Origin: Gaiellaceae bacterium | Lineage (GTDB): Bacteria > Actinomycetota > Thermoleophilia > Gaiellales > Gaiellaceae | NCBI GenBank assembly: GCA_035514135.1 | Contig: DATKBJ010000046.1 | Coordinates: 6,147 to 70,146, forward strand | Length of the DNA: 64,000 nt | Direction: 5' to 3' | Notes under the pieces: generated by a model | Told to the model about the DNA's origin: nothing | Databases searched by the model: none | Seen by the model: the letters and a program-made list of their open reading frames with translations, nothing else | Position numbers and translations under genes: made by a program | Part shown: in pieces, positions 2 through 17,532 of the stretch | How positions within the stretch are numbered: the first letter of the stretch is position 1 | How the letters are laid out: the number at the start of each line of letters is the position of its first letter

Positions 2-1762
2 GCCGGGCTGGGGCTGGCCGCGACCCGATCGCTCGCGCCGCGACGCCCGCTGCTCGTGGCGTCGGGCGCTGCCCTCTTCGTGACAGTGCTCGGCAACCTC
101 GGTGAGATCCATGTCATTCGAACCGAGCTGACGGGCTGGGTGTCGCCGGAGTGGTGGTTGTGGAATCCGACGCGGGTCATTCATCCCGGCGAAGGCGAGC
201 CTGGGCCGATCTCCGAGTTCCCCGCATTCACGTTCATCTTCGGCGACCTCCATGCGCACGCGATGGCGCTGCCGATCGCAGCGCTCGCTCTCGCGCTCGT
301 CGTCAGCATCGTCCGCGGCGGCGCGACGAGCGTCCGCCCGTTGGCTCCCGCTCTCGCCGTGCTCGCGCTCACGCTGGGAGCGCTTTCGGTGACGAACACG
401 TGGGACTTGCCGACCTACGGGCTCCTGGCATGCCTCGGTCTCGCGATCGCGATCCTCGGCGAGGGTCTTTCTAGACGGCGCGTCTCCGTGTTCCTGGGAG
501 CCTCGATGGCCCTCGCGCTCGCCGCGTACCTTGCCTTCCTGCCGTTCCGTCTCCACTACTGGTCCGTTTTCGACGGCGTCCAGCGCTGGGAGGGGCGACA
601 GACCCGCCTCTTCGACTACCTCACGATCCACGGACTCTTCCTCTTCGCGATCGTCTCCGCGCTCGTCCTCCAGGTGGCTCGCGCGGCCGACCTCGGCGCG
701 AGCGCTCGCACGGTGAGGGTCTTCGCCCGCCGCCCGCGTCGTGTAAGGGAGACGCTCGAGCGCCACCATGCGTTCGTCGCAGGTTCGCACACCCTCCTCG
801 TAACGCTCGTCGCCGTTCTCGCGATCGCCGTCGTGACGGCCGCATGCGCTCTCACCGCGCAGTGGCCGGCCGCGGTCGCCTTGCCTGTCGCGTCACTCGC
901 GGTTCTGGCATGGCCGGTCCGGGTGAGGTCGGGCGTGAGCGTGCGCGACAGGGCGATTCGACGGCTACTCGCAGTCCTGGTTCTGGTGGGACTCGGGCTG
1001 ACGCTCGGCGTCGAGTACTACGTGCTACGGAACATCGATATCGGCCGCGTGAACACCGTCTTCAAGACCTACATGCAGGTGTGGGTGCTGTTCGCGGTGG
1101 CCGCGGCGGTTTCGGCCGGGATGGTGTTCGCCCGCCTCCGACACCTCCGACGAGGGGTCGCGAACACGTGGCGAGTCGCGTTCCTCGCGCTCGTCGCAGT
1201 TGCGGCCCTCTACCCCGTCCTCGCCGCGCGCGCGAAGATCGACGACAGATTCGACCGCTCGGTCGGCCGGACGCTCGACGGCAGCGCGTTCATGGAGAAG
1301 GCGATCTTCAACGACAAGGGCGTCGACATGCGTCTGGTGCACGACCGCGACGGCATCCGCTGGATACTCGAGAATGTCGAAGGATCGCCGGTTGTCGCGG
1401 AGATCAACACCGCGCCGACGCTCTACGGATGGGAATTGCGCTACGCGATGTTCACCGGCAACCCGAGCATCGTGGGCTGGGACTTCCACCAGCGTCAGCA
1501 GCGTCCGCCGATGGCCCCGGCGGTGCAAGAGCGGGTGGCGGACGTCCAGCGCATGTACCGGACGCCGAGCGCTGCGGTGGCGTACGGCATCCTCACCACG
1601 TACGGAGCCAGCTACGTCGTCGATGGTCCGCTGGAGCGAACCTACTTCCCGCGGGGCGCGGGGAAGTGGGCGAGCGGCGAGGGGAGGTACTGGACGCTCG
1701 CGTACTCGAACCCGGGCGTGCGGATCTACCGCGTGCTCCCAGCCGAACCGGACAGTTCGTAG
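2..1762 (+). CDS. Chlor_Arch_YYY / DUF2298-family polytopic membrane protein, C-terminal part (5' end outside the window)
   Basis: The frame is open from nt 2, with no stop before the listed GTG at 56. There are many TM segments. EFPAFTFIFGDLHAHAM matches EFPYFSFLLADLHAHVL of the paralog at 1726-3906. The soluble C-terminus (GWDFHQRQQR...YGASYVVDGPLER) parallels GWSGHEVQWGH...YGVRYVFIGSLER. Confidence 0.75.
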   Translation, partial: AGLGLAATRSLAPRRPLLVASGAALFVTVLGNLGEIHVIRTELTGWVSPEWWLWNPTRVIHPGEGEPGPISEFPAFTFIFGDLHAHAMALPIAALALALVVSIVRGGATSVRPLAPALAVLALTLGALSVTNTWDLPTYGLLACLGLAIAILGEGLSRRRVSVFLGASMALALAAYLAFLPFRLHYWSVFDGVQRWEGRQTRLFDYLTIHGLFLFAIVSALVLQVARAADLGASARTVRVFARRPRRVRETLERHHAFVAGSHTLLVTLVAVLAIAVVTAACALTAQWPAAVALPVASLAVLAWPVRVRSGVSVRDRAIRRLLAVLVLVGLGLTLGVEYYVLRNIDIGRVNTVFKTYMQVWVLFAVAAAVSAGMVFARLRHLRRGVANTWRVAFLALVAVAALYPVLAARAKIDDRFDRSVGRTLDGSAFMEKAIFNDKGVDMRLVHDRDGIRWILENVEGSPVVAEINTAPTLYGWELRYAMFTGNPSIVGWDFHQRQQRPPMAPAVQERVADVQRMYRTPSAAVAYGILTTYGASYVVDGPLERTYFPRGAGKWASGEGRYWTLAYSNPGVRIYRVLPAEPDSS

Positions 1763-3906
1763 ATCACCGTGTCGCCGGATCGAAAGACCTCGGTGCCGAT
1801 CTGGGAGAACTTCGCGAGGCCGCCCTCGGCGGCGTGATCCGCTCGCTCGAGCGACCCGATGAAGACGTAGCGAACGCCGTATCCGTCCAGGAGCGTGCGC
1901 GCCTCGTCGGCGTTCGCGGTCCGGTAGATCGTCTGGATGTCCGCGGCGCGCGACCCGGGCTCGTGGCCCCATTGCACCTCGTGCCCCGACCAGCCCAGCA
2001 CGGTTGCGAGGCCCGTGAACGTCGAGACACGCGCGCGGCCCTCCGCGTCGAAGTCGTTACCGACGGTCTCGAGAACGACTGCATGGCCGGGAGCGTTCTC
2101 GCGCAGCCACTCGATCGCGGCGACGTCGTCGGCCGCCGCGCGGCGCAGCCAGGCGATGCCGTCGAGCGTGGGATCGGCCGCGAACGTCCCCGACCGCGAG
2201 TACGACCCGGCGACGGGGTACACGAGCGCGAGCGCGAGGAGGACGCCGAGTCCGGCCAGCCAGACGACCCGCAGGCGTCGCCCGAGCCAGCGCGCGCTCC
2301 AGAAGACGCCGACGGCCCCGACGATCGCGAGCAGGAACCACGCCTGGTAGCCGGTCTTGAAGACGGTGTTGAAGCGGAAGCTCGGCGATCCGTCGAACAC
2401 GTCGCGCACGTAGACGATCTCGCCCGAGACCACCAGAAGGAGGGCGACCGCGGAGAGCAGCCAGAGAACGCGCTCCGGCTGGCCTGCTGAACCGCTCGCG
2501 AACGTCATGTACACCGCCGCCGCGGCGACAACCAGCGCGAGGGTCAATCCGGACAGATTGGGCGGCGCCAGCAGAACGAGCAGGAAGAAAGACGCCGAGG
2601 CCGCCCAGACCACGTATCGCACCGGTACTCGGCGCAGCCGACCCACGAAAAGCGCGAGGAGCACCCACAGCGACAGTCCGTAGATGGAGGCGTAGTCCCG
2701 CGCGAACTCCGTGAACCGAACGCGATCACGCACGACGCCGACGCCGTCGGCCGGTGGCGAGAACGCCAACCAGAAGGGAAAGTAGAGCACGACCGCCGCA
2801 ACGAGCAGGGCACCACCCCAAGCGGCGGCGCTCTGCCAACGGCCGTCGGCTTCGAGCGACCAGAGCACGAGTGCCCCGGCGGCGATCGCCACAGCTGTTG
2901 GGAAGTCGAAGCTGTTCGTCGGGTAGAGGACTCCGAGGACGAGTGCGGCGACACCGAGCTCGGCGAGCCCACGACGCGACGGTCGGTCGCCGACCGACGC
3001 GGGAGGTCCGTGCAGCGCGAGCTGGATCGCGTAGGCGATGCAGACGAGGGTGAACGGAGTCACCAGCACGTGTGCGTGAAGGTCGGCGAGCAGGAAGCTG
3101 AAGTACGGGAACTCGTTCGCCGTCCCGTCGATCACGCGGGAGGGGGCCCACCAGTCGTAGGTGGCGAAGCGACCGGGATCCTGGAGGAACTGGACCCCGC
3201 CTTCGAGGTTGCCGAGAAGCAGGGCGAACGCCGTCCCCACCAGACCGACGACGATCGGCGAACGAGGCGGCGCATCGCCTCGCATACGGGCAGCCGCATA
3301 CAGCGTACTCGTCACGCCGAAGACTGCGACTCCGACGAGCGCGAAGAAGAGCGCGATGCCGAGGTTGAACCCGACGGCCGGATCCACGCCCGTGAGCCGC
3401 ACGACGAACGCCACGAGATAGTGCCCGTAGTAGTAGTAGTTGAGATCCTCGCCGGACTGCCACGGGTCGTGCGGCGGGAACGATTCCGACGCGTTCGTCG
3501 CGTTGACGAAGGCCATGTCCATCGGCTTCTCCGTTTGCCAGACGTCCGGGGCGTAGCTGCGCATGAGCGCCCACGCGGCAAAGAGGCCCGTGAACAGCGC
3601 CTGGCTTGCGAGCCAGGCGGTATGCGTGCCGTCGGCGCGGTCGAGCCGTCCGAGCCCGTACCGGCGACCGAGAGCCACGGCGCCGGCTGCAACGAGGGCG
3701 ACCGCCGCAAGAGCGCTCGCCCGCCCGTACGGGACGACGTGCAGGCTCGCGAGAAGCCACGCGGGGTACGCCGCGAGGAGGAGGCCGAGCGGGATCGCGA
3801 GCGTGACCCCGCGGCCGGGCAGGCGAGGGAATAGAAGCTCGGCGAACGGCAGCGCGACCAGGCCGAGCACGGCGACCAGCAGCCAGACGGAGAGCGCGTC
3901 GATCAC
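1726..3906 (-). CDS. Chlor_Arch_YYY / DUF2298-family polytopic membrane protein (726 aa)
   Basis: Very hydrophobic ORF carrying the family-defining tyrosine run (DLNYYYYGHYLVAF), a DLHAH motif and a C-terminal soluble domain. GTG start. It has a 37-nt convergent overlap with the + strand paralog. Confidence 0.8.
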   Translation of the reverse strand: MIDALSVWLLVAVLGLVALPFAELLFPRLPGRGVTLAIPLGLLLAAYPAWLLASLHVVPYGRASALAAVALVAAGAVALGRRYGLGRLDRADGTHTAWLASQALFTGLFAAWALMRSYAPDVWQTEKPMDMAFVNATNASESFPPHDPWQSGEDLNYYYYGHYLVAFVVRLTGVDPAVGFNLGIALFFALVGVAVFGVTSTLYAAARMRGDAPPRSPIVVGLVGTAFALLLGNLEGGVQFLQDPGRFATYDWWAPSRVIDGTANEFPYFSFLLADLHAHVLVTPFTLVCIAYAIQLALHGPPASVGDRPSRRGLAELGVAALVLGVLYPTNSFDFPTAVAIAAGALVLWSLEADGRWQSAAAWGGALLVAAVVLYFPFWLAFSPPADGVGVVRDRVRFTEFARDYASIYGLSLWVLLALFVGRLRRVPVRYVVWAASASFFLLVLLAPPNLSGLTLALVVAAAAVYMTFASGSAGQPERVLWLLSAVALLLVVSGEIVYVRDVFDGSPSFRFNTVFKTGYQAWFLLAIVGAVGVFWSARWLGRRLRVVWLAGLGVLLALALVYPVAGSYSRSGTFAADPTLDGIAWLRRAAADDVAAIEWLRENAPGHAVVLETVGNDFDAEGRARVSTFTGLATVLGWSGHEVQWGHEPGSRAADIQTIYRTANADEARTLLDGYGVRYVFIGSLERADHAAEGGLAKFSQIGTEVFRSGDTVIYELSGSAGSTR

Positions 3907-3928: not shown

Positions 3929-5284
3929 TCAGGAGGCCCAGACCTCTTCGGGCCTGTCTTCGAGCACTTGACGAGCGACGTCGATGCCCATCTTGGCCGC
4001 GTGATCCATGTTCCCGATCTCGTAGCGCCAGGAGCCGAAGCGCCCGCGCGAGTAGATCTCGTGCTGCATCAGCCAGGGCTGCACGACCTCGAGCGCACGG
4101 TCCCGGTCGCGCGTCGGTATGGGATAGGCGTACTCCACGTCGATCGTGTGCACGGACGCGATAGGGGGTTCGTCGGGGACGAGCCCGGTCGCGACGAGGG
4201 CGGACACGACGGCGTCCTCGTGTCCCTCGCGCTCGCGGGGCAGGTGGGTCGAGTACGACGTCTCGGTCATGTACGACGAGTAGCGCTCCGTGTCGGCTCC
4301 GGGGACGTTCGCGGCGGCGTACTTCGCGAAGTTGGTCGCCCGATAGAACGGCACTTCCGGATCGGCGAAGTAGAGCCACGAGCGGTCGTCTCGCAGCGGG
4401 AGCTCGAAGCCGACCCCGACCACCCACACGCCGTTGTGCACGAGCGTCGCCGCAGCCGCGCGGACGTCCGCCGGGCATTCGACCATCGCGGCGACGAGCA
4501 CGTCGATCGGCATGGTGGAGACCAGGACGTCGTATCCCTCGGTGCCCCCGTCGGCAAAGCGCAGCACCCGCGCCTCGGCGTCGACGCCGACGAGCTCGGC
4601 GTCGTAGCGGACCCGCGGCGTCAGCGTCGTGGCGAGGCGCCGGTAGATCTCCCCCGTGCCACCGGTACGCGGGAACCGGAACGTGTTGTTCGGTCCCCAG
4701 CCGGCGTCGTCGAGCTCGAGCAGTACGTTTCGCAGCGCGCGTCGGTAGTCGACCACACTGATGCGCTCTGCAATCCATGAGGCGGACATCTCCTCTGGAT
4801 GAACCGCCCAGACCTTCGTGTTGTAAGGGCGCATGAACCTTTGGGTGATCCCGTCGCCGAACGTGCGCTGCATCCAGGTCGCAAAGTCGCTTGCTCCGTC
4901 CGCGCCGGGGGCGTCGATGAGACCGAGGAGACAGTCGTATGCATCGTCGGGAGGCAGGTACCGGAGGTTGTTCTGAAATGGATACGGCACCCAGGCGTTG
5001 CCAAGCAGCACGTACGACGAGCGCTCGAGCTCGTGAACGTCGTCACCGAGCACCTCGTCGAGCAGGCGGTCGAACTCGCCGTAGTGGCTGAAGACGACGT
5101 GGCCGCCCTGATCCCAGGTGAAGCCGGCGGGATCGACGACGGATCCGGCGTGCCCGCCCGCGACTGACGAACGCTCGTAGATCGCCCAGTCCTCGTGTCC
5201 GAGCAGGGCGAGCTCGCGTCCGCACGCAAGCCCACAGGGGCCTGCGCCGACGATCGCCACGTGCGGGGCCTGTGAGCTCGGCAT
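3929..5284 (-). CDS. FAD-dependent UDP-galactopyranose mutase homolog, eukaryote-type (long form)
   Basis: N-terminal Rossmann motif VAIVGAGPCGL. It also has blocks I recognise from fungal/kinetoplastid UGMs: GGHVVFSHY, WVPYPFQNN, FMRPYNTKVWAV, GWGPNNTFRFPRTGGTG, WLYFADPEVPFYRATNF and YSRGRFGSWRYEIGNMDH. It lies 22 nt upstream of the YYY gene on the same strand. Confidence 0.75.
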   Translation of the reverse strand: MPSSQAPHVAIVGAGPCGLACGRELALLGHEDWAIYERSSVAGGHAGSVVDPAGFTWDQGGHVVFSHYGEFDRLLDEVLGDDVHELERSSYVLLGNAWVPYPFQNNLRYLPPDDAYDCLLGLIDAPGADGASDFATWMQRTFGDGITQRFMRPYNTKVWAVHPEEMSASWIAERISVVDYRRALRNVLLELDDAGWGPNNTFRFPRTGGTGEIYRRLATTLTPRVRYDAELVGVDAEARVLRFADGGTEGYDVLVSTMPIDVLVAAMVECPADVRAAAATLVHNGVWVVGVGFELPLRDDRSWLYFADPEVPFYRATNFAKYAAANVPGADTERYSSYMTETSYSTHLPREREGHEDAVVSALVATGLVPDEPPIASVHTIDVEYAYPIPTRDRDRALEVVQPWLMQHEIYSRGRFGSWRYEIGNMDHAAKMGIDVARQVLEDRPEEVWAS

Positions 5285-5394: not shown

Positions 5395-6048
5395 ATGCGG
5401 CGCAATCTAATACTCATCGGGCTCCTGGGCGCATTGCTTAGCGTTGGCCTCGCCGTGTCCGCCACGGGAGTCGCCGCCGATCCCGCGTCGACGACCACCA
5501 CGACGACCACCACGACGAACACTCCGACGAACACTCCGACGAACACGGTGGTTCCGCCGACGAATACGCCGACGAACACTCCCACGAACACGGTGGTTCC
5601 GCCGACGAACACGCCGACAAGGACGCCGACGAACACTGCGACGCCGACGGCGACGCCCAATCCGTTCGACGGCTGCACGCCCGGCTATTGGAAGCAGGAG
5701 CAGCACCTCGATAGTTGGACCGGCTACACGCCCGGCCAGAAGATCTCGGCGGTGTTCACGGTTCCTGCCTCCTTGACTCTCAAAGGCAAGTGGCTGGGCG
5801 ACTACACGCTGCTCCAGGGCCTGAATTTCCGGGGCGGAAACAGCACGTCGGGCAAAGCGGAGATCTTGCTCCGCGCGGCAATCGCGGCGATCCTCAACGC
5901 GGCTCATCCCGACGTCGACTACCCCTTGACCGTCGACGCGATCGACGACGGCGTGAACGACGCGCTCGCGAGCTTGAACAAGATGGCCATCACGGCGCTC
6001 GCCCAGTGGCTCGACACGTACAACAACTACGGCTGCCCGTTGAACTGA
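5395..6048 (+). CDS. Secreted protein with N-terminal Thr/Pro-rich tandem repeats and a Cys-bounded C-terminal domain of unknown function
   Basis: Signal peptide MRRNLILIGLLGALLSVGLAVSA. This is followed by T9 and then (TNTP)n / TNTVVPP repeats. The domain GCTPGYWKQEQHLDSW ... YNNYGCPLN follows. An SD-like GGGGGTAGAGG sits upstream of the ATG. Confidence 0.8.
   Translation: MRRNLILIGLLGALLSVGLAVSATGVAADPASTTTTTTTTTNTPTNTPTNTVVPPTNTPTNTPTNTVVPPTNTPTRTPTNTATPTATPNPFDGCTPGYWKQEQHLDSWTGYTPGQKISAVFTVPASLTLKGKWLGDYTLLQGLNFRGGNSTSGKAEILLRAAIAAILNAAHPDVDYPLTVDAIDDGVNDALASLNKMAITALAQWLDTYNNYGCPLN
5491..5650 (+). repeat. In-frame tandem repeat: poly-Thr codon run, 12-nt ACGAACAC(T/G)CCG units and a 45-nt duplication (5533-5577 / 5578-5622)
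   Basis: Direct reading. actccgacgaacacggtggttccgccgacgaatacgccgacgaac is followed by actcccacgaacacggtggttccgccgacgaacacgccgacaagg. Confidence 0.9.
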
Positions 6049-6131: not shown

Positions 6132-6857
6132 ATGACCGAGCTCTCCGTCGTCGTCCCGGTCTACAACGAGGAGGGTGCGATCGAGACGCTCGTGGACGAC
6201 CTCGGGAGCGTGCTCACGCCTCTCTTCGACGAGCTACAGGTGATCGTCGTCGACGACGCGTCGACCGATGAGACGCCGGCGATCCTCGAGCGGCTCGCAC
6301 ACGAGCGCCCGTGGCTCGACGTCGTGCGCGCGTCGTCGAACGCCGGGCACGGACCTTCGGTCGTGCGGGGCCTCGAGCTCGCGCGCGCCGAGTGGATCTT
6401 CCAGATCGACTCCGACGGCCAGTTCGTCGTTGCCGAGTTCCCGCGGCTCTGGGAGCGCCGCGCTAACGGCGACCTCGTGCTCGGAGTCCGCCAGAACCGG
6501 CGCGACCCGCGCCATCGGCTGCTCCTCTCGCGCTCCGTGAGGTTGGCGACGTCGCTGCTCGTGGGCGCGCGCATGCGAGACGTCAACACGCCGTTTCGTC
6601 TCGTGCGCCGATCGGTCTGGGAGGATCTCCGCCCGCTCATTGGCTCCTCGACGCTCGCTCCCAATATCTTCGTCGCGGTCGGAGCCCGAGTCCGGGGCTG
6701 GCGCGTCGTCGAGCTGCCCGCGACGCATCGGCCGCGGGTCACCGGAACGGGCAGCCTGCGCGCGCTCCGTCTGGTGCGCTTCAGCCTCCGGGCGCTCGGC
6801 CAGCTGCTCGCGTTCCGCGTGCGGCTGCGACGGCTGCCGGCACGGGAGGCGTCGTGA
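6132..6857 (+). CDS. Family 2 glycosyltransferase, polyprenyl-phosphate sugar synthase-like (DPM1/GtrB type)
   Basis: LSVVVPVYNEEGAIETLV and VVDDASTDETP motifs. Size is about 240 aa with no large TM region. Its stop overlaps the next start (ATGA-type, at 6854-6857). Confidence 0.8.
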   Translation: MTELSVVVPVYNEEGAIETLVDDLGSVLTPLFDELQVIVVDDASTDETPAILERLAHERPWLDVVRASSNAGHGPSVVRGLELARAEWIFQIDSDGQFVVAEFPRLWERRANGDLVLGVRQNRRDPRHRLLLSRSVRLATSLLVGARMRDVNTPFRLVRRSVWEDLRPLIGSSTLAPNIFVAVGARVRGWRVVELPATHRPRVTGTGSLRALRLVRFSLRALGQLLAFRVRLRRLPAREAS

Positions 6858-8535: not shown

Positions 8536-9336
8536 GTGCACCCGCGGACGCCCAAGCTCCTGCGAAAGCTGCCGTACTACGTGGCGTCGGTGTTCCAGCT
8601 GGCCCGGATCGCGCGCGCCCGAAGCGTCGCGCGCTGCATCCTCCTGCCTGATAAGCGCCTCGATCTCCGCGACGGGAGCTCGCTTCGACTGGGGACCGTT
8701 CTCGACGTGCTCGTTGTCAAGGAGACGCTCGTCGACGACGTCTACGGATTGCGCGGGGTCGCGGCGGCTGCTGACGGGGTCGTCGTGGATGTGGGTGCCG
8801 GGGTCGGTGAGTTCACACTTGCCGCGGCTCGGCGCTTTCCTGAGCTGACCGTGCTCTCCTGCGAACCGAACCCGGCCGCGTTCGCACTCCTGACGCTGAA
8901 CGCTGCGGCCTCCGGGTACACGAACGTCAAGATCATCCCGGCCGCGATCGGAACGGAACCGCAGTATGTCCTTCGCAACGCTGCGAGTGGTGCACGCGCT
9001 TCGGCTGTCGGCGCCGCCGACGCTCAGGCAGTCGTCGTCATGGGTCGGCGGCTCGATGAGATCGTGCCGTGCGGGCCGATTCGGCTCCTGAAGATCGACT
9101 GCGAGGGCCTCGAGGTCGACGTGCTCAGAAGCGCGGCCGGAGTCATCGATCGAGTCGAGAAGGTGGTCGTCGAGTTCCATCGGCACCTCCTCGCGGACGC
9201 CGACCGGGCCGTAGCCGGCCTCCTGGGCCAGTACGGCTTTCGACCTCGGACTCGCATCGACCGATACGACGACGATCTCGGCTATGTATTCGCGGTCAGG
9301 GTCGGCGACTCGGGCGAGGGCGTTTGGGCGGTTTGA
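8536..9336 (+). CDS. FkbM-family SAM-dependent methyltransferase
   Basis: VVDVGAGVGEFTLAAARRFPELTVLSCEPNPAAFALL and LLKIDCEGLEVDVL motifs. I chose the in-frame GTG at 8536, just after the upstream stop. The listed 8215 start overlaps the preceding gene in another frame. Confidence 0.8.
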   Translation: MHPRTPKLLRKLPYYVASVFQLARIARARSVARCILLPDKRLDLRDGSSLRLGTVLDVLVVKETLVDDVYGLRGVAAAADGVVVDVGAGVGEFTLAAARRFPELTVLSCEPNPAAFALLTLNAAASGYTNVKIIPAAIGTEPQYVLRNAASGARASAVGAADAQAVVVMGRRLDEIVPCGPIRLLKIDCEGLEVDVLRSAAGVIDRVEKVVVEFHRHLLADADRAVAGLLGQYGFRPRTRIDRYDDDLGYVFAVRVGDSGEGVWAV

Positions 9337-11794: not shown

Positions 11795-13336
11795 ATGGTT
11801 ACCACTCCAACCGACATGAACGTGAACACGTCGACGTCGAGCAAACCAGCAGACGCGGCAGCCGTCGCCAATGTCGTCGTGGTCGGCGCCGGACCGGCCG
11901 GCCTGACGGCTGCCTACGAGCTGACGAAGCGCGACGTCACCGTCACCGTGCTCGAAGCGGACGTCGTCGTCGGGGGCCTCGCCCGGACCGTCGAACGTGA
12001 CGGCTGGCGGTTCGACATCGGCGGTCACCGCTTCTTCACGAAGGTCACTCGGGTCGAGGACCTCTGGCACGAACTGCTCCCTGACGACCTCCTCCTGCGG
12101 CCACGCATGAGCCGGATCTACTATGGCGGCAAGTTCTTCGACTACCCGCTGAAAGCCGGGAACGCGCTGCGCAACCTCGGCTTGGTGGAGGCCGCGCGGT
12201 GCGTGCTGTCCTACGTCGGAGCCTGGCTTCGACCTCCACGGGATCAGTCGACGTTCGAGGGATGGACCGCAGCGCGCTTCGGGTGGCGGCTGTACCGAGT
12301 GTTCTTCAAGACCTACACCGAGAAGGTGTGGGGCGTCCCGGCGACCGAGATCCAGGCCGACTGGGCCGCCCAGCGGATCAAGAACCTGTCCCTCGGATCG
12401 GCCATCTTCAACGCGCTCCGTCTTCGTCGCGGCGGCGGAAACCGGACCGAGATCACCAGCCTCATCGAGCAGTTTCTCTACCCCCGCCTCGGCCCAGGGA
12501 TGATGTGGGAGCGTTGTCACGAGCTCGTGGCAGCTGCGGGTGGCATCGTGGCCCTCGGCGCCCGGGTCGTGCGCATCTGCCACGTCGACGGGCGCGCCTT
12601 CGCCGTGGAGTCGACCACGGGCAGCGGGCCCGCAGCACATCAGGTGGACCACGTCATCTCGTCGATGCCGCTCCCTCACCTCGTCCTCGCCATGGACCCG
12701 CCACCACCCGACGATGTTCGCCGCGCCGCCGAAGCGATCGGGTATCGCGACTTCCTCACCGTCGCGCTCGTCGTGCCGGTCGAGGACGCCTTCCCCGATA
12801 ACTGGATCTACGTGCACGCTCCTGAAGTCCGGTTGGGCCGGGTGCAGAACTTCGGCTCCTGGTCCCCAGACATGGTGAAGCCGGGCCGGACGTGCCTCGG
12901 GCTGGAGTACTTCGTGTTCGAAGGCGACGATCTCTGGGACCTCCCCGACGACGAGCTGATCGAGTTCGGCACGAGCGAACTCATCACGCTCGGGCTGCTG
13001 CGCCCCGGGCGAGTGAAAGCCGGGTACGTGATCCGGATGCCGCTCGCTTACCCGGTCTACGATGAGGCCTACCAGCGCAACGTCGACGTGCTCCGCCGCT
13101 GGCTGCACGAGGTCGCCGCCAATGTGCATCCGGTCGGGCGCAACGGCATGCACCGCTACAACAACCAGGACCACTCGATGTACGCCGCCATGCTCACGGT
13201 GGAGAACATCTGCGACGGGGCGAGCCACGACGCGTGGACGATGAACGTAGACGAGTACCACGAGGTGATCGACGGTGCGGCCTCCGGCGGCACGGGTCGC
13301 GACGCACCCGTGCTGCCGCGTGAGAGCCGGCGTTAG
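11795..13336 (+). CDS. NAD(P)/FAD-dependent oxidoreductase of the UGM / amine-oxidase-like group common in polysaccharide loci
   Basis: VVVVGAGPAGLTAAYEL Rossmann motif, plus GGLARTVERDGWRFDIGGHRFF and FFKTYTEKVWG. The start was chosen at ATG 11795 (alternative 11816). The listed 11609 start runs through the IS relic. Confidence 0.75.
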   Translation: MVTTPTDMNVNTSTSSKPADAAAVANVVVVGAGPAGLTAAYELTKRDVTVTVLEADVVVGGLARTVERDGWRFDIGGHRFFTKVTRVEDLWHELLPDDLLLRPRMSRIYYGGKFFDYPLKAGNALRNLGLVEAARCVLSYVGAWLRPPRDQSTFEGWTAARFGWRLYRVFFKTYTEKVWGVPATEIQADWAAQRIKNLSLGSAIFNALRLRRGGGNRTEITSLIEQFLYPRLGPGMMWERCHELVAAAGGIVALGARVVRICHVDGRAFAVESTTGSGPAAHQVDHVISSMPLPHLVLAMDPPPPDDVRRAAEAIGYRDFLTVALVVPVEDAFPDNWIYVHAPEVRLGRVQNFGSWSPDMVKPGRTCLGLEYFVFEGDDLWDLPDDELIEFGTSELITLGLLRPGRVKAGYVIRMPLAYPVYDEAYQRNVDVLRRWLHEVAANVHPVGRNGMHRYNNQDHSMYAAMLTVENICDGASHDAWTMNVDEYHEVIDGAASGGTGRDAPVLPRESRR

Positions 13337-15249
13337 CAGTAGGGGGGTGCAGCCGCCGGGCACAGCACATCCCTGAACTCGACGAGCCGCAGCGAGTCGG
13401 TGCGCTTGAAGATCCGGACCGGCGGGTGGTCGTACACCCAGAAGGCTTCTTCGGCCGAGACATCGTTGAGCTGCACGCCGAGCAGACCCGGCTCGCTGGT
13501 GAACGACTCGACCTCCGCGTATCCGAGCTTCCCGGCGAAGAGGTCCGCGTAGAAACGCGTCATCAGCGGGAAGCGATCGGGCAGCCGTCCGATGGTGCGC
13601 CACGCGCGGGGTGAGCTGAGCACGTAGTAGTCGGCGTCGCGCAGGGGCTCGTACAGCTTCCGGAGCTTCGCTTCGTCGTCCGGGTCGAACACGGGAATCT
13701 GCAACCCCCGGTACCCACCGGCGGCCTTCGCTGCGGCGACCGTCTCGCCCCAGATCCCGCCGACGGGAAGCGAGTCGTCCCAGTGCTCGTTCGCGATCGT
13801 CGATCCCGGAGGGACGTTGGCCTGGATCCACCGCGTTGCCTCGATGCGCGTGTTGGGGCGGTCGTAGATCTGCACGAACGCGAGCGCGTAGATCGCCGTG
13901 AGGGCGACGAGAACGCCGGACAGCGTCAGGCGGAGACGGGCACGATCTCCGGTGAGCACGACGACGGCGAAAGCTGCGCACACGGGCAGGAGCGGCACGA
14001 GCGGCAGCAGATAGCGGCCCGTATGGACGAACGGCGTACCGAAGCGGAGGAAGACGAGCGCGACGAAGCTCACGATCATGAGCTGCCCCATCACCCGTGC
14101 CACCACATCCGCGGCGGGCCAGGCGCGAGCGCGGACGGTCGCCACAGCCGTGTGTGCGACGAAGACGGCGAGCGCGGCGAGACCGACGAATCCCGCGAAC
14201 GCGAGCGGAACCCCGAGCTGCCACAGCGCGAGGTTCCTGAGTGGGGTCCAGATCGGCTGCGACAGGAGCCACTGGTATGCGGGTGGGAAGTTCGACGGCC
14301 CCGCGATCGCATCCGCCTGGCGCTCGAGCGCGTCGCGGAACTGCGGATTCAGTGAGAGGTCGAGCCAGTTCGAGCTCTGGAACGTGTACGGGGAAGCGAG
14401 TCGGAATGCGAGGTAGGTCGTCACGACGACGAGGCCGGACTCCGCCATCAGTCGAAAGATTGCCGATCGCCCACCCGCCCACCGTGTGACGATGGTCGCC
14501 CTTCCGAGGAGTGCGATCCCCACGGGAAGAACGATCAAAGCGCCGCTCGCCTTGCATGCCACGGTGAGACCGAGCGCTGCGCCAGTCGCCAGGAGCGGCA
14601 GGGATAGTGCGGACGACCCTTCCTCCACGCCGGAGCGGAGGCTGCGGAGCGCCAGGAAGAACGTCAGCGTGCCCATCATTGCGACCCAGATGTCGGTGGT
14701 GAAGAAGTGCGCGTGCTGGATCGCGGTGACGGTGAACGCGTACAGCGCGGCAGCCAGGAGGGCTCCCACCGTTCGTCGACGCCTCTCGTAGTTCGCGAGC
14801 AGGAGCCAGCTGATCCCGAAGACCAGGAAGATCGTCACCCCGTCGACGAGCGCTGCGAGACGCCGGCCGACGAGATTGAGCTCGCCGTAGCCGTCCTGAC
14901 CGACGGCGGTCGCGACCACGCTCGTCGCGGTGAGCGGGAGCATGCCGTAGAGGTAGTTGGTGCCCTCGCTCGTGTTGTAGGGAGATAGCGGCGAACGGTC
15001 CACGTCGAAGTACTCGCGTGGGCCGGTCGGTAGCTCCGTGTTGTCCGCCACGACGCTCAGGTAGCGCTCGTCCGGGTGGAGGTGCTTGCCGTCGTCCCAG
15101 TTCGTTCCGACGAGGCGCAGCGTCAACCCGACGAACGCGATCACGACGAGTCCCAGGACGAGCGTAGAGCGTCGATCCACGCGGCTGATCGCCCCCGTCG
15201 CGGACGTGTCGCGCGCCTGTTGGGGGCGCACCAGAAGGCTCCGCGGCAC
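13333..15249 (-). CDS. GT-C fold membrane glycosyltransferase-like protein (PMT/ArnT-related)
   Basis: 638-aa polytopic ORF with HLHPDERYL in the first loop (DE motif). The soluble C-terminal domain ends in CPAAAPPYC. The start is ambiguous (15249, or GTG 15180). Confidence 0.6.
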   Translation of the reverse strand: MPRSLLVRPQQARDTSATGAISRVDRRSTLVLGLVVIAFVGLTLRLVGTNWDDGKHLHPDERYLSVVADNTELPTGPREYFDVDRSPLSPYNTSEGTNYLYGMLPLTATSVVATAVGQDGYGELNLVGRRLAALVDGVTIFLVFGISWLLLANYERRRRTVGALLAAALYAFTVTAIQHAHFFTTDIWVAMMGTLTFFLALRSLRSGVEEGSSALSLPLLATGAALGLTVACKASGALIVLPVGIALLGRATIVTRWAGGRSAIFRLMAESGLVVVTTYLAFRLASPYTFQSSNWLDLSLNPQFRDALERQADAIAGPSNFPPAYQWLLSQPIWTPLRNLALWQLGVPLAFAGFVGLAALAVFVAHTAVATVRARAWPAADVVARVMGQLMIVSFVALVFLRFGTPFVHTGRYLLPLVPLLPVCAAFAVVVLTGDRARLRLTLSGVLVALTAIYALAFVQIYDRPNTRIEATRWIQANVPPGSTIANEHWDDSLPVGGIWGETVAAAKAAGGYRGLQIPVFDPDDEAKLRKLYEPLRDADYYVLSSPRAWRTIGRLPDRFPLMTRFYADLFAGKLGYAEVESFTSEPGLLGVQLNDVSAEEAFWVYDHPPVRIFKRTDSLRLVEFRDVLCPAAAPPYC

Positions 15250-15275: not shown

Positions 15276-16430
15276 GTGCGACCTATCCGGGTACTGACCG
15301 TTCTCACGTTCTACTACCCGCATTGGACCGGCCTGACGGCACACGCGACTCGGATCGCCGAAGGGCTCGTCACCCGCGGCCACGAGGTGACCGTCATCGC
15401 CGCGCAGCACTCTCCCGAGCTTCCGCTGAAGGAGACGGTCAACGGCGTGAGCGTGGTTCGGCTGCCACCCGTTGCGCGCCTCAGTCGAGGGTGGCTGACT
15501 CCATCGCTTCCATGGCGTGTGCAACGCCTCGCCCGACGTCACCACGTCATCCACTTCCACACCCCGCTTCCCGAAGCACCTGTCGTCGCGGGTATCGGAC
15601 GTGTGCTCCGCAAGCCGATCGTGATGACGCATCAGGGCGATCTCGTGATGCCGGCAGGGTTTGCCAATCAGGCGATGGAAAGGCTGGGCACAGGGCTCCT
15701 GACCCTCGCCGGCCACATGTCGAGCGTCGTCAGCCCGCTGAACAAGGACTACGCAAGCGCGTCCACATTCCTCCAGCGATTCGACGGGAAGCTGGTGCCG
15801 ATCCTCCCCCCGGTCGAGATACCGATCCCGGATCAGAGCGAGGTCGAGCGGTGGAGATCCGAGCTCGGCCTCGAGGATCGCAAGCTGATCGGGTTTGCCG
15901 GTCGCTTCGTCGAGGAGAAGGGCTTCGACTTCCTGCTTCATGCGATTCCGGAGCTCGTGCGAACGGTTCCCGGCGCCCACCTCGTCTACGCGGGTGAGCA
16001 CCAGGTCGTCTACGAGAAGTTCTTCGAGAAGTGCGCGCCTTTCCTCGAAGCGAATCGCGACCACGTCACCTTCGTCGGTCTCATCCAGGACCCCCGGCGG
16101 CTCGCGAACTTCTATGCGATGTGCGATGTCTTCGCGCTCCCCAGCCGTACGGACTGCTTCGCGTCCGTCCAGGTCGAGGCGATGCTGTGCGGAACGCCCG
16201 TGGTCGCCGCAGACATCCCGGGAGCGCGGGTGCCCGTCCGAACCACTCGAATGGGCGTGCTCGTCGAGCCGCGAGATCCCAGCGCCCTCGCGGCCGGAAT
16301 CCGCGACGTGTTGATGAAGCCGTCCGAGTACCGGCGTACGCGAGAAGAGATCCGGACTCACTTCGATCCGGTGAAGAGCATCGACGCGTACGAGGAGTTG
16401 TTCACGCGCTTGACGTCGTCTCGCCGATGA
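15276..16430 (+). CDS. Family 4 (GT-B, Glycos_transf_1) glycosyltransferase
   Basis: RVLTVLTFYYPHWTGL N-terminus, and a GRFVEEKGFDFL ... E(x7)E-type C-terminal half (SVQVEAMLCGTPVV). Confidence 0.85.
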   Translation: MRPIRVLTVLTFYYPHWTGLTAHATRIAEGLVTRGHEVTVIAAQHSPELPLKETVNGVSVVRLPPVARLSRGWLTPSLPWRVQRLARRHHVIHFHTPLPEAPVVAGIGRVLRKPIVMTHQGDLVMPAGFANQAMERLGTGLLTLAGHMSSVVSPLNKDYASASTFLQRFDGKLVPILPPVEIPIPDQSEVERWRSELGLEDRKLIGFAGRFVEEKGFDFLLHAIPELVRTVPGAHLVYAGEHQVVYEKFFEKCAPFLEANRDHVTFVGLIQDPRRLANFYAMCDVFALPSRTDCFASVQVEAMLCGTPVVAADIPGARVPVRTTRMGVLVEPRDPSALAAGIRDVLMKPSEYRRTREEIRTHFDPVKSIDAYEELFTRLTSSRR

Positions 16431-17314
16431 CCGAAGGGACGCGATCGCTCTCCGATGGCGATCGGCTGGTGCTCGAGCGGCTTCTGACGAACGAGGCGGA
16501 CATGGCATTCAGGCGTCGCGTGCCGATCCTGCTCGATTACCTCGAGCTCACGGACGACGTGGACGTGCTCGACTGCGGCTGCGGCATGGGCTTCTACCTG
16601 ATGGCGATCAGGGAGCTCCGACCGAGTGCTCGGCTCACGGGCGTCGATCCCGACGCCGAACGCCTTCGGTTTCTCGAGGATCTCGGCGTGAGCGCACGGG
16701 CAGTCGTGGGAGATGCGCGCGCTCTCCCTTTCGAGGACGAGTCGTTCGACAGCGTCCTGATGAGCGAGGTCCTCGAGCATCTTCGCGACGACGACGCTGG
16801 TTTGCGCGAAGCGCTCCGGGTCCTCCGTCCCGGCGGCGTTCTCGCGATCTCCGTGCCGCACGCTCGATATCCGTTCTGGTGGGATCCCATCAATGCGACC
16901 TGGATAGGACTGGGCGGCCGGCCCATCCGGAGTGGCCCGATCGCCGGGATCTGGTCGAACCACGAGCGCCTTTACGAGCCCGAGCAGCTCGAGTCGCGTG
17001 TTCGAAGCGCAGGTTTCTATGTCGAGGACAGCCGCAAGGCGACGCACTACAGCGTGCCGTTCATCCACTTCCTCGTCTACGGGATCGGCAAGCCGCTGAT
17101 CGAGAAGGATCTGCTTCCCAGCGGCATGCGGTCGAGCGCGGACAGGTTCTCCGGGATGGAGAACAGCAGTTCCCCGCTCAACCCCTTCAACGCTGCGCGG
17201 TCGCTCTTTCGCGCCGTGGACCGTCTCAACGACGGGCCGCGGGCAGCCGGAAAGAGGACGTTCGTTAACGTTCTACTGAAGGCGCGAAAGCCCGGTCAGC
17301 CGACCGCGGGCTGA
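16427..17314 (+). CDS. Class I SAM-dependent methyltransferase
   Basis: VLDCGCGMGFYL motif I and LRPGGVLAISVP. The ATG at 16427 overlaps the upstream stop (ATGA). The listed 16031 start lies inside the GT4 gene in another frame. Confidence 0.8.
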   Translation: MTEGTRSLSDGDRLVLERLLTNEADMAFRRRVPILLDYLELTDDVDVLDCGCGMGFYLMAIRELRPSARLTGVDPDAERLRFLEDLGVSARAVVGDARALPFEDESFDSVLMSEVLEHLRDDDAGLREALRVLRPGGVLAISVPHARYPFWWDPINATWIGLGGRPIRSGPIAGIWSNHERLYEPEQLESRVRSAGFYVEDSRKATHYSVPFIHFLVYGIGKPLIEKDLLPSGMRSSADRFSGMENSSSPLNPFNAARSLFRAVDRLNDGPRAAGKRTFVNVLLKARKPGQPTAG

Positions 17315-17532
17315 ACTCGGCCCGTCCGCCGGAGTCGACGCGCAACCACGACGCCCGCTGCGACGAGGAACAACGGCAGAACATTCAGAAGATGGAGCAC
17401 GAACGCGTACGAGAGCGCGACGGAGCCGCCGACGTCATACGCCGTCAGCACGACGACGGTCGCTCCCTCGAATACGCCTACGGCAGCGGGCGACGAAGGG
17501 ACGATGACTGGGAGCGAGGGCGATACACGTGC
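17296..17532 (-). pseudogene. 3' fragment of a flippase-like / lysylphosphatidylglycerol-synthase-TM-region (UPF0104) family gene
   Basis: Minus-strand frame reads SLPVIVPSSPAAVGVFEGATVVVLTAYDVGGSVALSYAFVLHLLNVLPLFLVAAGVVVARRL, which matches the typical C-terminal P.GlGv.E segment of the family. The frame is closed by TAA at 17533-17535, so about 250 N-terminal codons are missing. Confidence 0.55.

Follow-up and report, generated by a model that had tools for sequence, protein, structure and literature searches.

A YYY/TIGR03663 gene cluster in a Gaiellaceae bacterium as a probable envelope glycosylation locus

Introduction

A 17-kb cluster from a soil actinobacterium (Gaiellaceae), at positions 2–17532 of the 64-kb stretch of DNA analysed here (the window), sets five large membrane proteins beside a suite of sugar-handling enzymes, and raises the question of what such proteins might build and on which acceptor. 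Thirteen genes could be assigned to it. A preliminary description of the sequence had proposed a glycan-assembly island with five GT-C-like membrane proteins, among them two YYY proteins (TIGR03662/DUF2298) and one TIGR03663 protein, and searches with profile HMMs agree for all five; the coordinates of the five open reading frames were confirmed, and their third-position GC (0.78–0.86) is of coding type. We consider it probable that the cluster is the local version of an envelope glycosylation locus of the Gaiellales (Actinomycetota, Thermoleophilia), in which a lipid-phosphate-sugar donor would be made, flipped and used by GT-C enzymes for transfer.

Results

The cluster itself is real, but the term island does not hold. 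Its GC content (0.65–0.71) equals that of the flanks, and a compositional island was therefore rejected in favour of a chromosomal cluster, one that is cut by the left edge of the window and extends beyond it. No further GT-C gene was found in the other 46 kb of the window, so five such genes within 15 kb are not a matter of chance.

It might still be supposed that the arrangement is a recent or accidental mosaic with no functional unit, whether a horizontally acquired island or a mis-assembly, given that the source is a metagenome-assembled genome (MAG), that next to the cluster lie 7.7 kb of degraded DNA, weak in coding signal and holding integrase-like and HTH_17-like fragments, and that three neighbouring genes (FkbM, GT39-like and a second flavoenzyme) form a local insertion rare in or absent from syntenic relatives. 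This is very improbable. In both GC and GC3 the cluster matches the housekeeping genes on its flanks (recA, RNase Y, ftsK, sigma factors, MurT/GatD), no direct repeats were found flanking it, and an independent Logan assembly contains identical junctions for YYY_A, YYY_B and the UDP-galactopyranose mutase (UGM) gene. Moreover, another Gaiellaceae locus (L072) is a mirror image of the window's gene order, with 10 of the 13 genes in the same relative order, and that order is largely kept in ∼13 other Gaiellales-type loci.

The first YYY protein, YYY_A (2..1762, forward strand; GC3 = 0.86), has its 5′ end outside the window (orthologues are 834–869 aa long) and scores 303.3 bits on TIGR03662 (cut-off 300.25) over profile positions 209–726 and 189 bits on DUF2298. 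YYY_B (1726..3906, reverse strand) is full-length at 726 aa, with 524.4 and 344.6 bits on the same two profiles. The two share 33 per cent identity over 225 aa, including a GDLHAH motif, and the Gaiellales orthologues of YYY_A are 47–62 per cent identical to it. In its AF2 model (pLDDT 92.8, pTM 0.93) YYY_B has a GT-C fold followed by an AglB-like C-terminal globular domain that matches 3vu0; every one of the first eight Foldseek matches is a GT-C enzyme (probability 1.00), the best being AglB 7e9s (4e-7), DPY19 7zli, AftA 8if8, ALG12 and ALG3, with global TM-scores to solved GT-Cs that are low (0.31–0.51). Residues E126, D130, N156-YYY-G161-H162, E265, D275, H277, H279, D502, R511 and K517 are invariant in 67 homologues. 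The invariant acidic residues of the YYY motif TEKPMD come after a transmembrane helix, where a long loop begins, as do those of HHDE in the TIGR03663 protein, and a helix map read with the positive-inside rule would put the conserved acidic residues, and the C-terminal domain with them, on the outer side of the membrane. No profile-level sequence similarity joins the YYY and TIGR03663 families, and we found no biochemical work on any YYY protein.

The TIGR03663 (Agl23-like) protein, 557 aa encoded at 6854..8527 on the forward strand, scores 253.8 bits on its own profile (cut-off 126.25) and 42 bits on PMT_2. Its AF2 model (pLDDT 88.5) is also of GT-C fold, so that this fold is predicted for two of the five proteins, and is closest in Foldseek to ArnT 5ezm (TM 0.60/0.62), with STT3, PglB, ALG9/12, Pmt4 and AftD among the best matches; H57 H58 D59 E60, H83 G84 P85, R47, R124 and R150 are invariant. 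The family had been described as of unknown function, which no longer stands: its present NCBIfam name is taken from the Haloarcula hispanica protein Agl23, which is reported to be a hexose-P-dolichol flippase, that is, a flippase for a lipid-linked sugar.

Directly upstream lies a 241-aa GT2 without a transmembrane segment (6132..6857, forward strand; Glycos_transf_2 79 bits), the stop codon of which overlaps the TIGR03663 start (GTGA at 6854–6857), so that the two genes are translationally coupled. It had been taken for a polyprenyl-phosphate sugar synthase-like enzyme, and its closest relatives are such synthases: ArnC, PgfS, PpgS and the haloarchaeal Dol-P-hexose transferase in NCBIfam, and ArnC 9hwj (8e-17), DPMS 5mlz and GtrB 5ekp in the PDB. 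All the NCBIfam matches fall below cut-off, no equivalog being passed, and thus no sugar specificity was assigned. The partnership with TIGR03663 recurs elsewhere, as fusion proteins in other genomes (P0177, P0179, P0181 and a 799-aa gene in L084) and as the order UGM–GT2–TIGR03663 on one strand in nine related loci, one of which (L002) has 4-bp overlaps in its public gene calls.

A comparison set of 82 related loci defines what is conserved. YYY and TIGR03663 genes lie within 10 kb of one another in 73, which bears out the earlier statement that the families co-occur, often as neighbours; 58 of the pairs are convergent, and in 35 of those the stop codons stand within 50 bp. These two genes and a full-length PF03706 gene (65 loci) form the conserved core. 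The claim that the window presents the pairing in a full enzymatic context is correct here, but that context is specific to Gaiellales: within 10 kb of the Solirubrobacterales triad of YYY, TIGR03663 and PF03706 there is neither a GT2 nor a UGM nor a PT-linker gene, and a donor and acceptor deduced from Gaiellales may therefore not fit the core pair. In keeping with the preliminary description, which did not recognise the locus as a known type, no arabinogalactan, LAM, S-layer or teichoic locus that has been characterised is syntenic with the cluster; the syntenic matches are uncharacterised MAG and Solirubrobacter loci.

In the window the third member of the core is a remnant. Of a PF03706 gene (LPG_synthase_TM, MprF-type flippase-like), no more than the final 78 codons are left, at 17296..17532 on the reverse strand, identified by HMM (29.8 bits, E 5e-7, profile positions 253–301 of 302) and by tblastn (64 per cent identity to residues 354–419 of the 427-residue L072 homologue, E 3e-18); tblastn found the N-terminal part nowhere in the window. 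Complete homologues reach 193 and 120 bits on the PF03706 profile. The intact gene adjoins that for TIGR03663 in 60 loci, and in most Solirubrobacterales loci is directly upstream of it on the same strand. The truncation may mean that the locus is partly defective, or it may be an artefact of MAG assembly.

These observations bear on which protein flips. It is quite conceivable, if somewhat short of an even chance, that TIGR03663 is a true GT-C transferase and PF03706 the real translocator, with TIGR03663 and YYY working on one acceptor either in turn, as two transferases, or together, as a heteromeric pair. Such an arrangement would suit the complete GT-C fold of TIGR03663, nearest to ArnT and STT3, with its invariant first-loop DE, HGP and arginine residues; the position of PF03706 beside it in relatives; and the archaea, where PF03706 is a predicted glycosylation flippase with an AglD-like GT2 and a ‘PMT/STT3-like’ protein next to it. 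With its PF03706 gene truncated in this genome, the pathway would then be impaired or dependent on a paralogue elsewhere. However, H. hispanica Agl23, when purified and placed in proteoliposomes, translocated M5GN2-PP-Dol, it also rescued yeast rft1-delta, and the GT2–TIGR03663 fusions parallel AglD, itself a GT2–PF03706 fusion, which fits a TIGR03663 protein that receives the lipid-linked product directly.

Of the remaining two GT-C proteins, one is PMT-like and one GT39-like. The first (638 aa, 13333..15249, reverse strand; PF02366 PMT 24.7 bits, cut-off 22.7) has an HPDER motif after TM1, aligns with the TIGR03663 profile in hhalign (E 1e-4), which brings the DE motifs into register (HPDE/HHDE), and has orthologues in Gaiellales loci at 46–58 per cent identity. 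The second, GTC3 (9378..11465, forward strand; PMT_2 37.6 bits, cut-off 26.1, and a weak STT3 match), which NCBI names ‘glycosyltransferase family 39 protein’, aligns similarly (E 1.6e-4, DGDEG against HHDES); only 19 close homologues were found, it is a standalone gene elsewhere, and it was found in one of the 82 loci; it is an accessory that belongs to the cluster of this genome in particular.

The proposal of two UGM-like flavoenzymes holds fully for one. The product of 3929..5260 (reverse strand; 443 aa in the public annotation, within a reading frame that reaches 5284) is a eukaryote-type UGM, matching T. cruzi UGM 4dsg in phmmer strongly and over the full length (E 1.2e-99, residues 6–447 against 9–458) and carrying the motifs GGHVxFSHY, FMRPYNxKVWAV, PFYRAT, YP(I/T)P and RGRFGxWRYExGNxDH. 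Since it is a true UGM, a galactofuranose donor is a sound deduction, in line with the furanose sugar suggested before. The other, an FAD oxidoreductase of the PRK07208.1-4 family with its ATG at 11795 (11795..13336, forward strand; NF005548, named ‘hypothetical protein’ by NCBIfam, 751 bits, cut-off 389), is only distantly UGM-like, its best PDB matches being eukaryote-type UGMs, at E 7e-16 over the full length and 4e-22 over part of it; the related loci have virtually no specific orthologue, best-match assignment leaving one weak match (L077, 25 per cent identity).

HMM searches likewise verified the GT2, the GT4, the flippase-like remnant and both methyltransferases, in keeping with the O-methylation suggested earlier. 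The FkbM-family methyltransferase (8536..9336, forward strand; TIGR01444 83.8 bits, Methyltransf_21 49 bits) begins with a GTG 9 nt past the preceding stop. The GT4, a cytoplasmic GT-B enzyme (15276..16430, forward strand; Glycos_transf_1 110 bits, Glyco_trans_4_4 56.7 bits), has no NCBIfam equivalog above cut-off, and is coupled by an ATGA overlap to the class I SAM methyltransferase (16427..17314, forward strand; Methyltransf_11 79.6 bits), orthologues of which (58–65 per cent identity) also adjoin the GT4 gene in relatives.

One further gene (5395..6048, forward strand) encodes a secreted protein with a signal peptide, a Thr/Pro-rich linker made up of T9 and (PTNT)n, and a C-terminal domain that contains Cys, without a Pfam match. 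Its Thr/Pro-rich stretch is the sole one in the window. Genes with (PTxT)n linkers lie inside the cluster in 10 related loci, mostly between UGM and YYY_B, and their C-terminal domains differ; a PT-linker protein encoded within the cluster both here and in these relatives is a candidate O-glycosylation acceptor.

Discussion

In the envelope glycosylation pathway that we favour, UGM would supply UDP-galactofuranose in the cytoplasm, and the ArnC/DPMS/GtrB-like GT2 would place a sugar on polyprenyl phosphate; Galf is a candidate for that sugar, since relatives carry UGM and GT2 in one operon. We found no paper that names lipid-linked Galf donors, which weighs against this reading, as do the truncated PF03706 gene, the low global TM-scores of YYY_B, the absence of profile-level similarity between YYY and TIGR03663, the GT2 scores below every equivalog cut-off and the gene content of the Solirubrobacterales triad. 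The coupled TIGR03663 protein would then take the lipid-linked sugar and translocate it, use it, or both, with the PF03706 flippase-like protein presumably participating in relatives, and at the outer face YYY_A, YYY_B, the PMT-like protein and the accessory GT39-like protein would draw on lipid-phosphate donors to put sugars on acceptors in the envelope. The GT4 may perform a cytoplasmic glycosyl step and the two methyltransferases O-methylation. For the PMT-like enzyme at least, we take the Thr/Pro-rich linker of secreted proteins, the cluster's own included, to be the most likely acceptor.

The acceptor might instead be a furanose-rich wall polysaccharide or lipoglycan, functionally analogous to mycobacterial arabinogalactan or LAM, with UDP-Galf and polyprenyl-P-pentofuranose donors feeding YYY GT-Cs that build or decorate a cell-wall or glycolipid-anchored glycan. 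We regard this as possible but on the doubtful side. The UGM gene is consistent with it, and in ∼10 loci, including the closest relative (YYY_B 85 per cent identical), YYY_A has on its flanks a second GT2 and a gene of the UbiA family, the latter scoring as a decaprenyl-phosphate phosphoribosyltransferase (DPPRS; NF008978 213.4 bits, cut-off 207); these two genes, however, are seen in relatives and lie outside the window. The resemblance of TIGR03663 to ArnT, a lipid-modifying GT-C, and the ability of PF03706 domains, fused in other lineages to GT-A or GT-B domains, to flip lipids would also accord with a wall glycan, for which a paper on a three-component pentofuranose system supplies the paradigm. 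Against it, the genes scanned include neither an Emb/Aft-family Pfam match nor a GlfT-like galactan polymerase, and the PT-linker and PMT-like genes are syntenic with the cluster. YYY_B itself looks both ways: its best TM-scores are to the arabinofuranosyltransferase AftA (0.44/0.51), whereas its best E-values are to the protein-modifying GT-Cs AglB and DPY19, and its C-terminal domain is AglB-like.

The envelope glycosylation pathway proposed here has precedents in three-component systems of a GT2 or PPPRS, a flippase and a GT-C, that for pentofuranose among them, in GtrB and GT-C pairs that O-glycosylate Ser/Thr-rich regions, in Agl22/Agl23, and in the predicted archaeal gene neighbourhood of a GT2, PF03706 and a PMT/STT3-like protein. 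The logic of a lipid-P-sugar synthase, a flippase and a GT-C is thus already an established paradigm.

Chromosomal setting and gene content

Because the window is uniformly GC-rich (65–71 per cent G+C throughout), real genes were picked by third-position GC. A compositional island was ruled out, as G+C in the cluster (2–17532) is the same as in its flanks, and given that the remaining window is occupied by housekeeping genes (recA, RNase Y, miaA/miaB, ftsK, two sigma-70 factors, MurT/GatD, and BacA) the cluster is regarded as chromosomal. Further envelope-lipid-carrier and wall functions are encoded close by, namely the undecaprenyl-diphosphate phosphatase BacA/UppP at 35037–35984(+) and a GatD/MurT-like pair for peptidoglycan amidation at 38548–41491(+). 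A GH99 domain (endo-alpha-mannosidase family, ∼29096–29983(+), 144.6 bits) lies 12 kb from the cluster, and a link to mannose-containing envelope glycans is possible; the N-terminal part of its ORF overlaps an opposite-strand Pyr_redox_2 gene, so that the gene must begin downstream of the point where the ORF opens.

A preliminary description had listed a glycan-assembly cluster with five GT-C-like membrane proteins, and its gene list was borne out almost item by item by Pfam and NCBIfam HMM scans, which also placed an FkbM methyltransferase, a GT4 enzyme, and a class I methyltransferase in the cluster (the GT4 stop and the methyltransferase start share bases, ATGA). Membership of the GT-C class is upheld by HMM match and predicted fold for the full-length YYY protein YYY_B (1726–3906(-)) and the TIGR03663 protein (6854–8527(+)), and by Pfam PMT/PMT_2 and hhalign for a PMT-like protein (13333–15249(-)) and a GT39-like protein (9378–11465(+)). 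The PMT-like protein carries HPDER after TM1 and scores 24.7 bits on PF02366, marginal against the cut-off of 22.7, with no match in NCBIfam or among PDB sequences; the GT39-like protein, called GT39 by NCBI, matches PMT_2 alone in Pfam. Both align to the TIGR03663 profile at E ∼1e-4 in hhalign, with their DE motifs (HPDE and DGDEG) in register.

A YYY protein resembles GT-C glycosyltransferases in fold

Both YYY proteins pass the cut-offs of their family models: YYY_B and the 5'-incomplete YYY_A (2–1762(+)) score 524.4 and 303.3 bits on TIGR03662 (cut-off 300.25) and 344.6 and 189.1 bits on PF10060 (cut-off 27.8). Members of TIGR03662 are described as strongly hydrophobic proteins of about 700–900 aa with a YYYxG motif. 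The family is large, with ∼6,800 clusters at 50 per cent identity (E ≤ 1e-10), and NCBI annotates YYY_B, in a Gaiellaceae (Actinomycetota, class Thermoleophilia) MAG record that is 100 per cent identical, as a 'DUF2298 domain-containing protein'. The literature searched contained no functional study of DUF2298, TIGR03662, or PF10060, which is a weak negative given the limited collection.

The motif was read in YYY_B, since the corresponding region of YYY_A falls beyond the window edge. Residues 155–163 are LNYYYYGHY, of which N156, Y157, Y158, Y159, G161, and H162 are invariant across 67 homologues. The same alignment shows as invariant E126 and D130 (TEKPMD), E265, D275, H277, and H279 (GDLHAH), D502, R511, and K517, along with H642, Q645, and W646 of the C-terminal domain, which fall inside a highly conserved GHEVQWGH.

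No STT3 match was found for YYY_B in Pfam or NCBIfam, and searches of PDB sequences returned nothing for YYY_B, the TIGR03663 protein, or the PMT-like protein and chance matches only for the GT39-like protein, so a comparison of folds was required. The AlphaFold model of YYY_B, built on the alignment of 67 homologues, has a pLDDT of 92.8, a pTM of 0.93, and at least 16 helices. Searched against the PDB with Foldseek, it returns GT-C enzymes in each of the first eight places at a probability of 1.00, comprising three entries of the archaeal oligosaccharyltransferase AglB (E 4e-7 to 2.5e-6), three of the C-mannosyltransferase DPY19, the arabinofuranosyltransferase AftA (TM 0.44/0.51), and ALG12; ALG3 follows at rank 11, the ranks in between being unrelated proteins at a probability of ∼0.1. 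Taken alone, the C-terminal globular domain matches that of AglB (3vu0, probability 1.00). In the model TEKPMD comes after helix 94–116 and before the short helices 127–139 and 159–172, and we infer that it starts the first long loop, the usual place of GT-C catalytic acids. HHDE of the TIGR03663 protein, with which HPDE and DGDEG are in register, would occupy the corresponding position. The helix map and the positive-inside rule likewise suggest that the invariant residues and the C-terminal domain would be extracytoplasmic.

Profile comparison detected no sequence similarity between the YYY and TIGR03663 families, which are therefore not recent paralogues. From the locus and its relatives comes the hypothesis that YYY proteins act as GT-C transferases, partnered by Agl23-like proteins and by flippase-like proteins of the MprF type.

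Giant proteins of 2,000–2,700 aa (P0242, P0245–P0247, P0249, P0250, and others) contain two to seven stretches each that match the YYY profile, some spanning almost the entire profile, an indication that one polypeptide can carry two or more YYY copies.

The TIGR03663 protein: flippase, transferase, or both

The TIGR03663 family is described as having an invariant DE dipeptide, an HGP tripeptide, and two arginines near the N-terminus, and as occurring with, and often adjoining, a TIGR03662 gene. The window protein scores 253.8 bits, about twice the cut-off of 126.25, over profile positions 6–430 of 435, and 51 homologues agree without exception in D59-E60 (within HHDE, residues 57–60), H83-G84-P85, R47, R124, R150, and R153. 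Its AlphaFold model (pLDDT 88.5) has a complete GT-C fold, and the top 34 Foldseek matches are GT-C enzymes or the GT-C-like PIG-U, the nearest being ArnT (TM 0.60/0.62), followed by STT3, PglB, ALG9/12, Pmt4, and AftD. The gene start is overlapped by the stop of the upstream GT2 gene (GTGA), an arrangement of translational coupling. In other genomes the two are also found as single polypeptides of 772–799 aa (P0177, P0179, P0181, and positions 4136–6535 of L084). Archaeal AglD proteins, which join a GT2 to PF03706, offer a parallel; in several phyla PF03706 domains occur fused to GT-A or GT-B.

The preliminary description had called this family one of unknown function, which is outdated, although the outline of its interpretation was right. 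NCBIfam now names TIGR03663 after Haloarcula hispanica Agl23, which is described as a putative hexose-P-dolichol flippase with the GT2 partner Agl22 (Lu et al. 2020, cited in PMC11182771). Purified Agl23 is reported to have moved M5GN2-PP-Dol across the membrane of liposomes, and Agl23 to have rescued yeast rft1-delta (PMC11182771). Lipid-linked sugar translocation is the activity reported for archaeal Agl23, while the fold and the invariant DE of the TIGR03663 protein would fit a transferase equally well. These two properties and the neighbouring PF03706 gene make a transferase a serious competitor to the flippase role assigned in the literature, and the protein could be a flippase, a transferase, or both.

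A conserved core of YYY, TIGR03663, and PF03706 genes

When one genome per GTDB species was scanned, 333 YYY loci emerged. The 80 that were retained represent Gaiellales, Solirubrobacterales (among them the cultured Solirubrobacter soli DSM 22325 and S. phytolaccae), and Chloroflexota, and three contigs bear the labels Alphaproteobacteria, Nitrospirota, and Paraconexibacter; window proteins were compared with the ORFs of 82 loci. The co-occurrence of the two families that had been stated in the preliminary description is evident here: 73 of 82 loci have a TIGR03663 gene no more than 10 kb from the YYY gene, as do 48 of the 53 that span at least 20 kb. The pair is convergent in 58 loci, with stop codons overlapping or no more than 50 bp apart in 35 of these. 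Full-length PF03706 genes are present in 65 of 82 loci (two that were scored gave 193 and 120 bits), and in 60 a PF03706 gene adjoins the TIGR03663 gene, usually directly upstream on the same strand. The pairing, together with the frequency of PF03706, identifies the triad of YYY, TIGR03663, and PF03706 as the conserved core.

Three Chloroflexota loci (L011, L014, and L076) have the YYY and TIGR03663 genes on one strand along with a PMT-like ORF of great length, all three overlapping, in contrast to the convergent pair of Solirubrobacterales.

The other window genes are confined to ∼14 Gaiellales-type loci. Window order is the mirror image of the Gaiellaceae locus L072, which reads PF03706, methyltransferase, GT4, PMT-like, TIGR03663, GT2, a linker-protein gene, UGM, YYY_B, YYY_A, a second GT2, and UbiA; the window differs in that FkbM, the GT39-like gene, and a second flavoenzyme gene (8536–13336) are inserted between TIGR03663 and PMT-like, and in that PF03706 is truncated. 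The GT39-like gene is rare, and since its 19 close homologues are solitary in unrelated contexts, a pairing with the second flavoenzyme gene was ruled out. UGM, GT2, and TIGR03663 follow in that order on one strand in nine related loci, with 4-bp overlaps in the public gene calls of one (L002).

The left flank beyond the window was inferred from the closest relative, L084 (YYY_B 85 per cent identical), as exact-protein look-ups upstream gave one 5.7-kb Logan contig. There YYY_A is followed by a GT2 gene and then a UbiA gene (15567–16472(-)) that scores 213.4 bits on the decaprenyl-phosphate phosphoribosyltransferase (DPPRS) model, against a cut-off of 207. A UbiA gene of this type and a second GT2 also flank YYY_A, the longer paralogue, in L002, L003, L004, L009, L013, L042, L053, L070, and L072, and by analogy both genes were probably cut off by the left edge of the window.

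The truncated PF03706 gene and the degraded DNA beside it

The remnant of a flippase-like gene in the preliminary description is real: the minus-strand stretch 17296–17532 encodes the last 78 codons of a PF03706 gene (LPG_synthase_TM, the MprF-type flippase domain), the rest of which is absent from the entire window. That this truncated gene is a core partner of the triad had been overlooked. An ORF on the opposite strand, 17269–17538(+), was rejected as the remnant, having no TM segment and no Pfam match.

The ∼7.7 kb at 17533–25150, which begin exactly at the truncation point, hold no ORF longer than ∼190 codons despite a genome of 66 per cent G+C, and their third-position GC periodicity is weak. 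By eye, the six translated frames contain frameshifted tyrosine-integrase-like pieces (no Pfam match) and a CPECEGTG zinc-finger motif, and an excisionase-type HTH_17 match is weak at 19.6 bits, under the cut-off of 27. An Rfam scan of the whole window found nothing, so this ORF-poor stretch is not an rRNA or other known RNA locus; neither convincing attachment-site repeats nor a tRNA were found around it. Its appearance is that of an integrative element in decay or of a poorly assembled region. The truncation may leave the locus of this genome impaired, or may be a MAG artefact beside degraded integrase-bearing DNA.

Putative sugar donors and acceptors

Two flavoenzymes had been described as UGM-like, and for one of them this is correct. 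The protein at 3929–5284(-) aligns with Trypanosoma cruzi UGM over 442 residues (E 1.2e-99), with the His, Arg, and Tyr motifs aligned, and by sequence is a true eukaryote-type UDP-galactopyranose mutase. The second flavoenzyme (∼11795–13336(+)) is a distant relative and was dropped as a UGM, as its match to solved UGMs is just E 7e-16; the NCBIfam family it belongs to is named 'hypothetical protein'. The GT2 (6132–6857(+)) has ArnC, PgfS, PpgS, and a haloarchaeal Dol-P-hexose transferase as its top NCBIfam matches, and ArnC, Pyrococcus DPMS, and GtrB as its nearest solved structures. With this GT2 adjacent and a DPPRS gene in relatives, the context points to polyprenyl-phosphate-linked sugars as the putative donors of the GT-C enzymes.

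Thr/Pro linkers are typical sites of O-glycosylation by GT-C enzymes that draw on lipid-phosphate sugars, as in actinobacterial Pmt substrates. For streptococci, O-glycosylation of Ser/Thr-rich regions by a lipid-P-sugar synthase and a GT-C enzyme is documented in the GtrB/PgtC2 and Pgf systems (PMC12041528). The product of 5395–6048(+) starts with a signal peptide, continues with nine threonines and (PTNT)n repeats, and closes with a small domain containing Cys; no other Thr/Pro-rich stretch occurs in the 64-kb window. Ten related loci have a (PTxT)n-linker gene within the cluster, mostly between the UGM and YYY_B genes, and the C-terminal domains of the products are non-homologous in some (L002 versus L053 and L072). 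By analogy the linker protein is a candidate O-glycosylation acceptor; the acceptor could also be a furanose-rich wall glycan or lipoglycan, with which the UGM of the cluster and the DPPRS-type genes of its relatives are in keeping.

Proposed pathway and its implications

A polyprenyl-phosphate-sugar pathway is the best-supported reading of the locus, and we consider it probable. The UGM would supply UDP-Galf and the GT2 would charge the lipid carrier, after which the coupled TIGR03663 protein, and in relatives PF03706 also, would carry the donor across to the outer face. Envelope acceptors would there be glycosylated by the GT-C enzymes (YYY, PMT-like, and GT39-like), with cytoplasmic and tailoring steps added by GT4 and the methyltransferases. 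The system would not be a new principle, but known lipid-phosphate-sugar/GT-C logic executed by an uncharacterised GT-C family, and it offers a large DUF family a clear, testable function hypothesis.

A more ambitious reading takes the triad as an unrecognised, widespread extracytoplasmic glycosylation machine, in which YYY proteins found a new GT-C family whose acceptor-binding domain is AglB-like, acting in the manner of an oligosaccharyltransferase or as a glycan transferase, and in which the Gaiellales UGM-GT2-TIGR03663 operon makes a polyprenyl-phosphate-galactofuranose donor. This reading is rather improbable. The range of the triad is Thermoleophilia and Chloroflexota in the loci examined, and by the description of the families it takes in Archaea too. 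A paper on a lipid-linked galactofuranose donor was not found in the limited collection of literature searched, a weak negative. Were this reading true, it would decide whether Agl23-family proteins are flippases, transferases, or both.

The Agl23 family is evidence in the Rft1 flippase debate of archaeal and eukaryotic glycobiology, and the present data sharpen that question because of the complete ArnT/STT3-like fold, the invariant DE, and the usual separate flippase-like neighbour gene. Thermoleophilia are deep-branching, abundant soil actinobacteria whose envelope chemistry is, to our knowledge, poorly described. The locus predicts surface glycans or glycoproteins with Galf, possibly pentofuranose, and O-methylation, and the cultured Solirubrobacter soli DSM 22325 and S. 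phytolaccae, which carry the minimal triad, are testable organisms.

Comparison with known systems

In actinobacterial Ppm1/Pmt a lipid-P-sugar synthase and a GT-C enzyme O-glycosylate Ser/Thr-rich protein regions. The window resembles this system and GtrB/PgtC2/Pgf in that GT2 and PMT-like genes stand beside the gene for a secreted protein with a (PTNT)n linker, syntenic in ten relatives. It differs in that the YYY and TIGR03663 families are no part of those systems, the linker is a putative acceptor, and the PMT match is marginal.

Three-component systems are an established paradigm: one sugar is loaded onto polyprenyl phosphate by an enzyme in the cytoplasm, exported by a flippase, and transferred by a GT-C enzyme on the outside (PMC11127046). 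The first component is a lipid-P-sugar or lipid-P-ribose synthase, as in GtrB/GtrA/Gtr*, ArnC/ArnEF/ArnT, and the PPPRS/MATE/GT136 system of Citrobacter youngae (PMC11127046). The window shares with them a GT2 nearest to ArnC/DPMS/GtrB and GT-C proteins, and its relatives a DPPRS-type UbiA. However, the cluster has five GT-C proteins in place of one, a YYY family without a characterised member in the literature searched, and, with no GtrA/SMR or MATE flippase among the Pfam and NCBIfam matches of cluster genes, candidate translocators that are an Agl23-like protein of GT-C fold and a PF03706 protein truncated in the window. The pairing of a GT2 with a TIGR03663 protein recalls H. hispanica Agl22/Agl23, where the GT2 makes hexose-P-dolichol; the host here is bacterial, so undecaprenyl or decaprenyl carriers would be expected rather than dolichol.

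In the sections of Makarova et al. 2015 that deal with PF03706, these proteins are predicted glycosylation flippases of archaea, found in neighbourhoods with AglD-like GT2 and with arCOG00563, 'distantly related to PMT/STT3' (PF03706 being arCOG00899; PMC5898192). The PF03706 genes of the related loci similarly adjoin a PMT/STT3-like membrane protein and a GT2, although the archaeal arrangement is a prediction and those sections mention no YYY/DUF2298 partner (PMC5898192).

The mycobacterial arabinogalactan/LAM system (Glf, DPPRS UbiA, and Emb/Aft) shows no synteny with the window, whose UGM is of eukaryote type and whose GT-C families are unrelated; no cluster gene matched the Emb, Aft, or GlfT families (Arabinose_trans, AftA, GlfT-type) in Pfam or NCBIfam. 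The likeness lies in the actinobacterial envelope, a UGM, extracytoplasmic GT-C enzymes, the DPPRS-family gene beside YYY_A in relatives, and the resemblance of the YYY_B fold to AftA. Compared with AglB/STT3/PglB, YYY_B is without the WWDYG and DK motifs, has its own invariants YYYxGH, GDLHAH, and GHEVQWGH, and reaches global TM-scores of just 0.3–0.4, yet like these enzymes it combines a GT-C membrane domain of many helices with a globular domain at the C-terminus, and AglB gave the best E-value overall.
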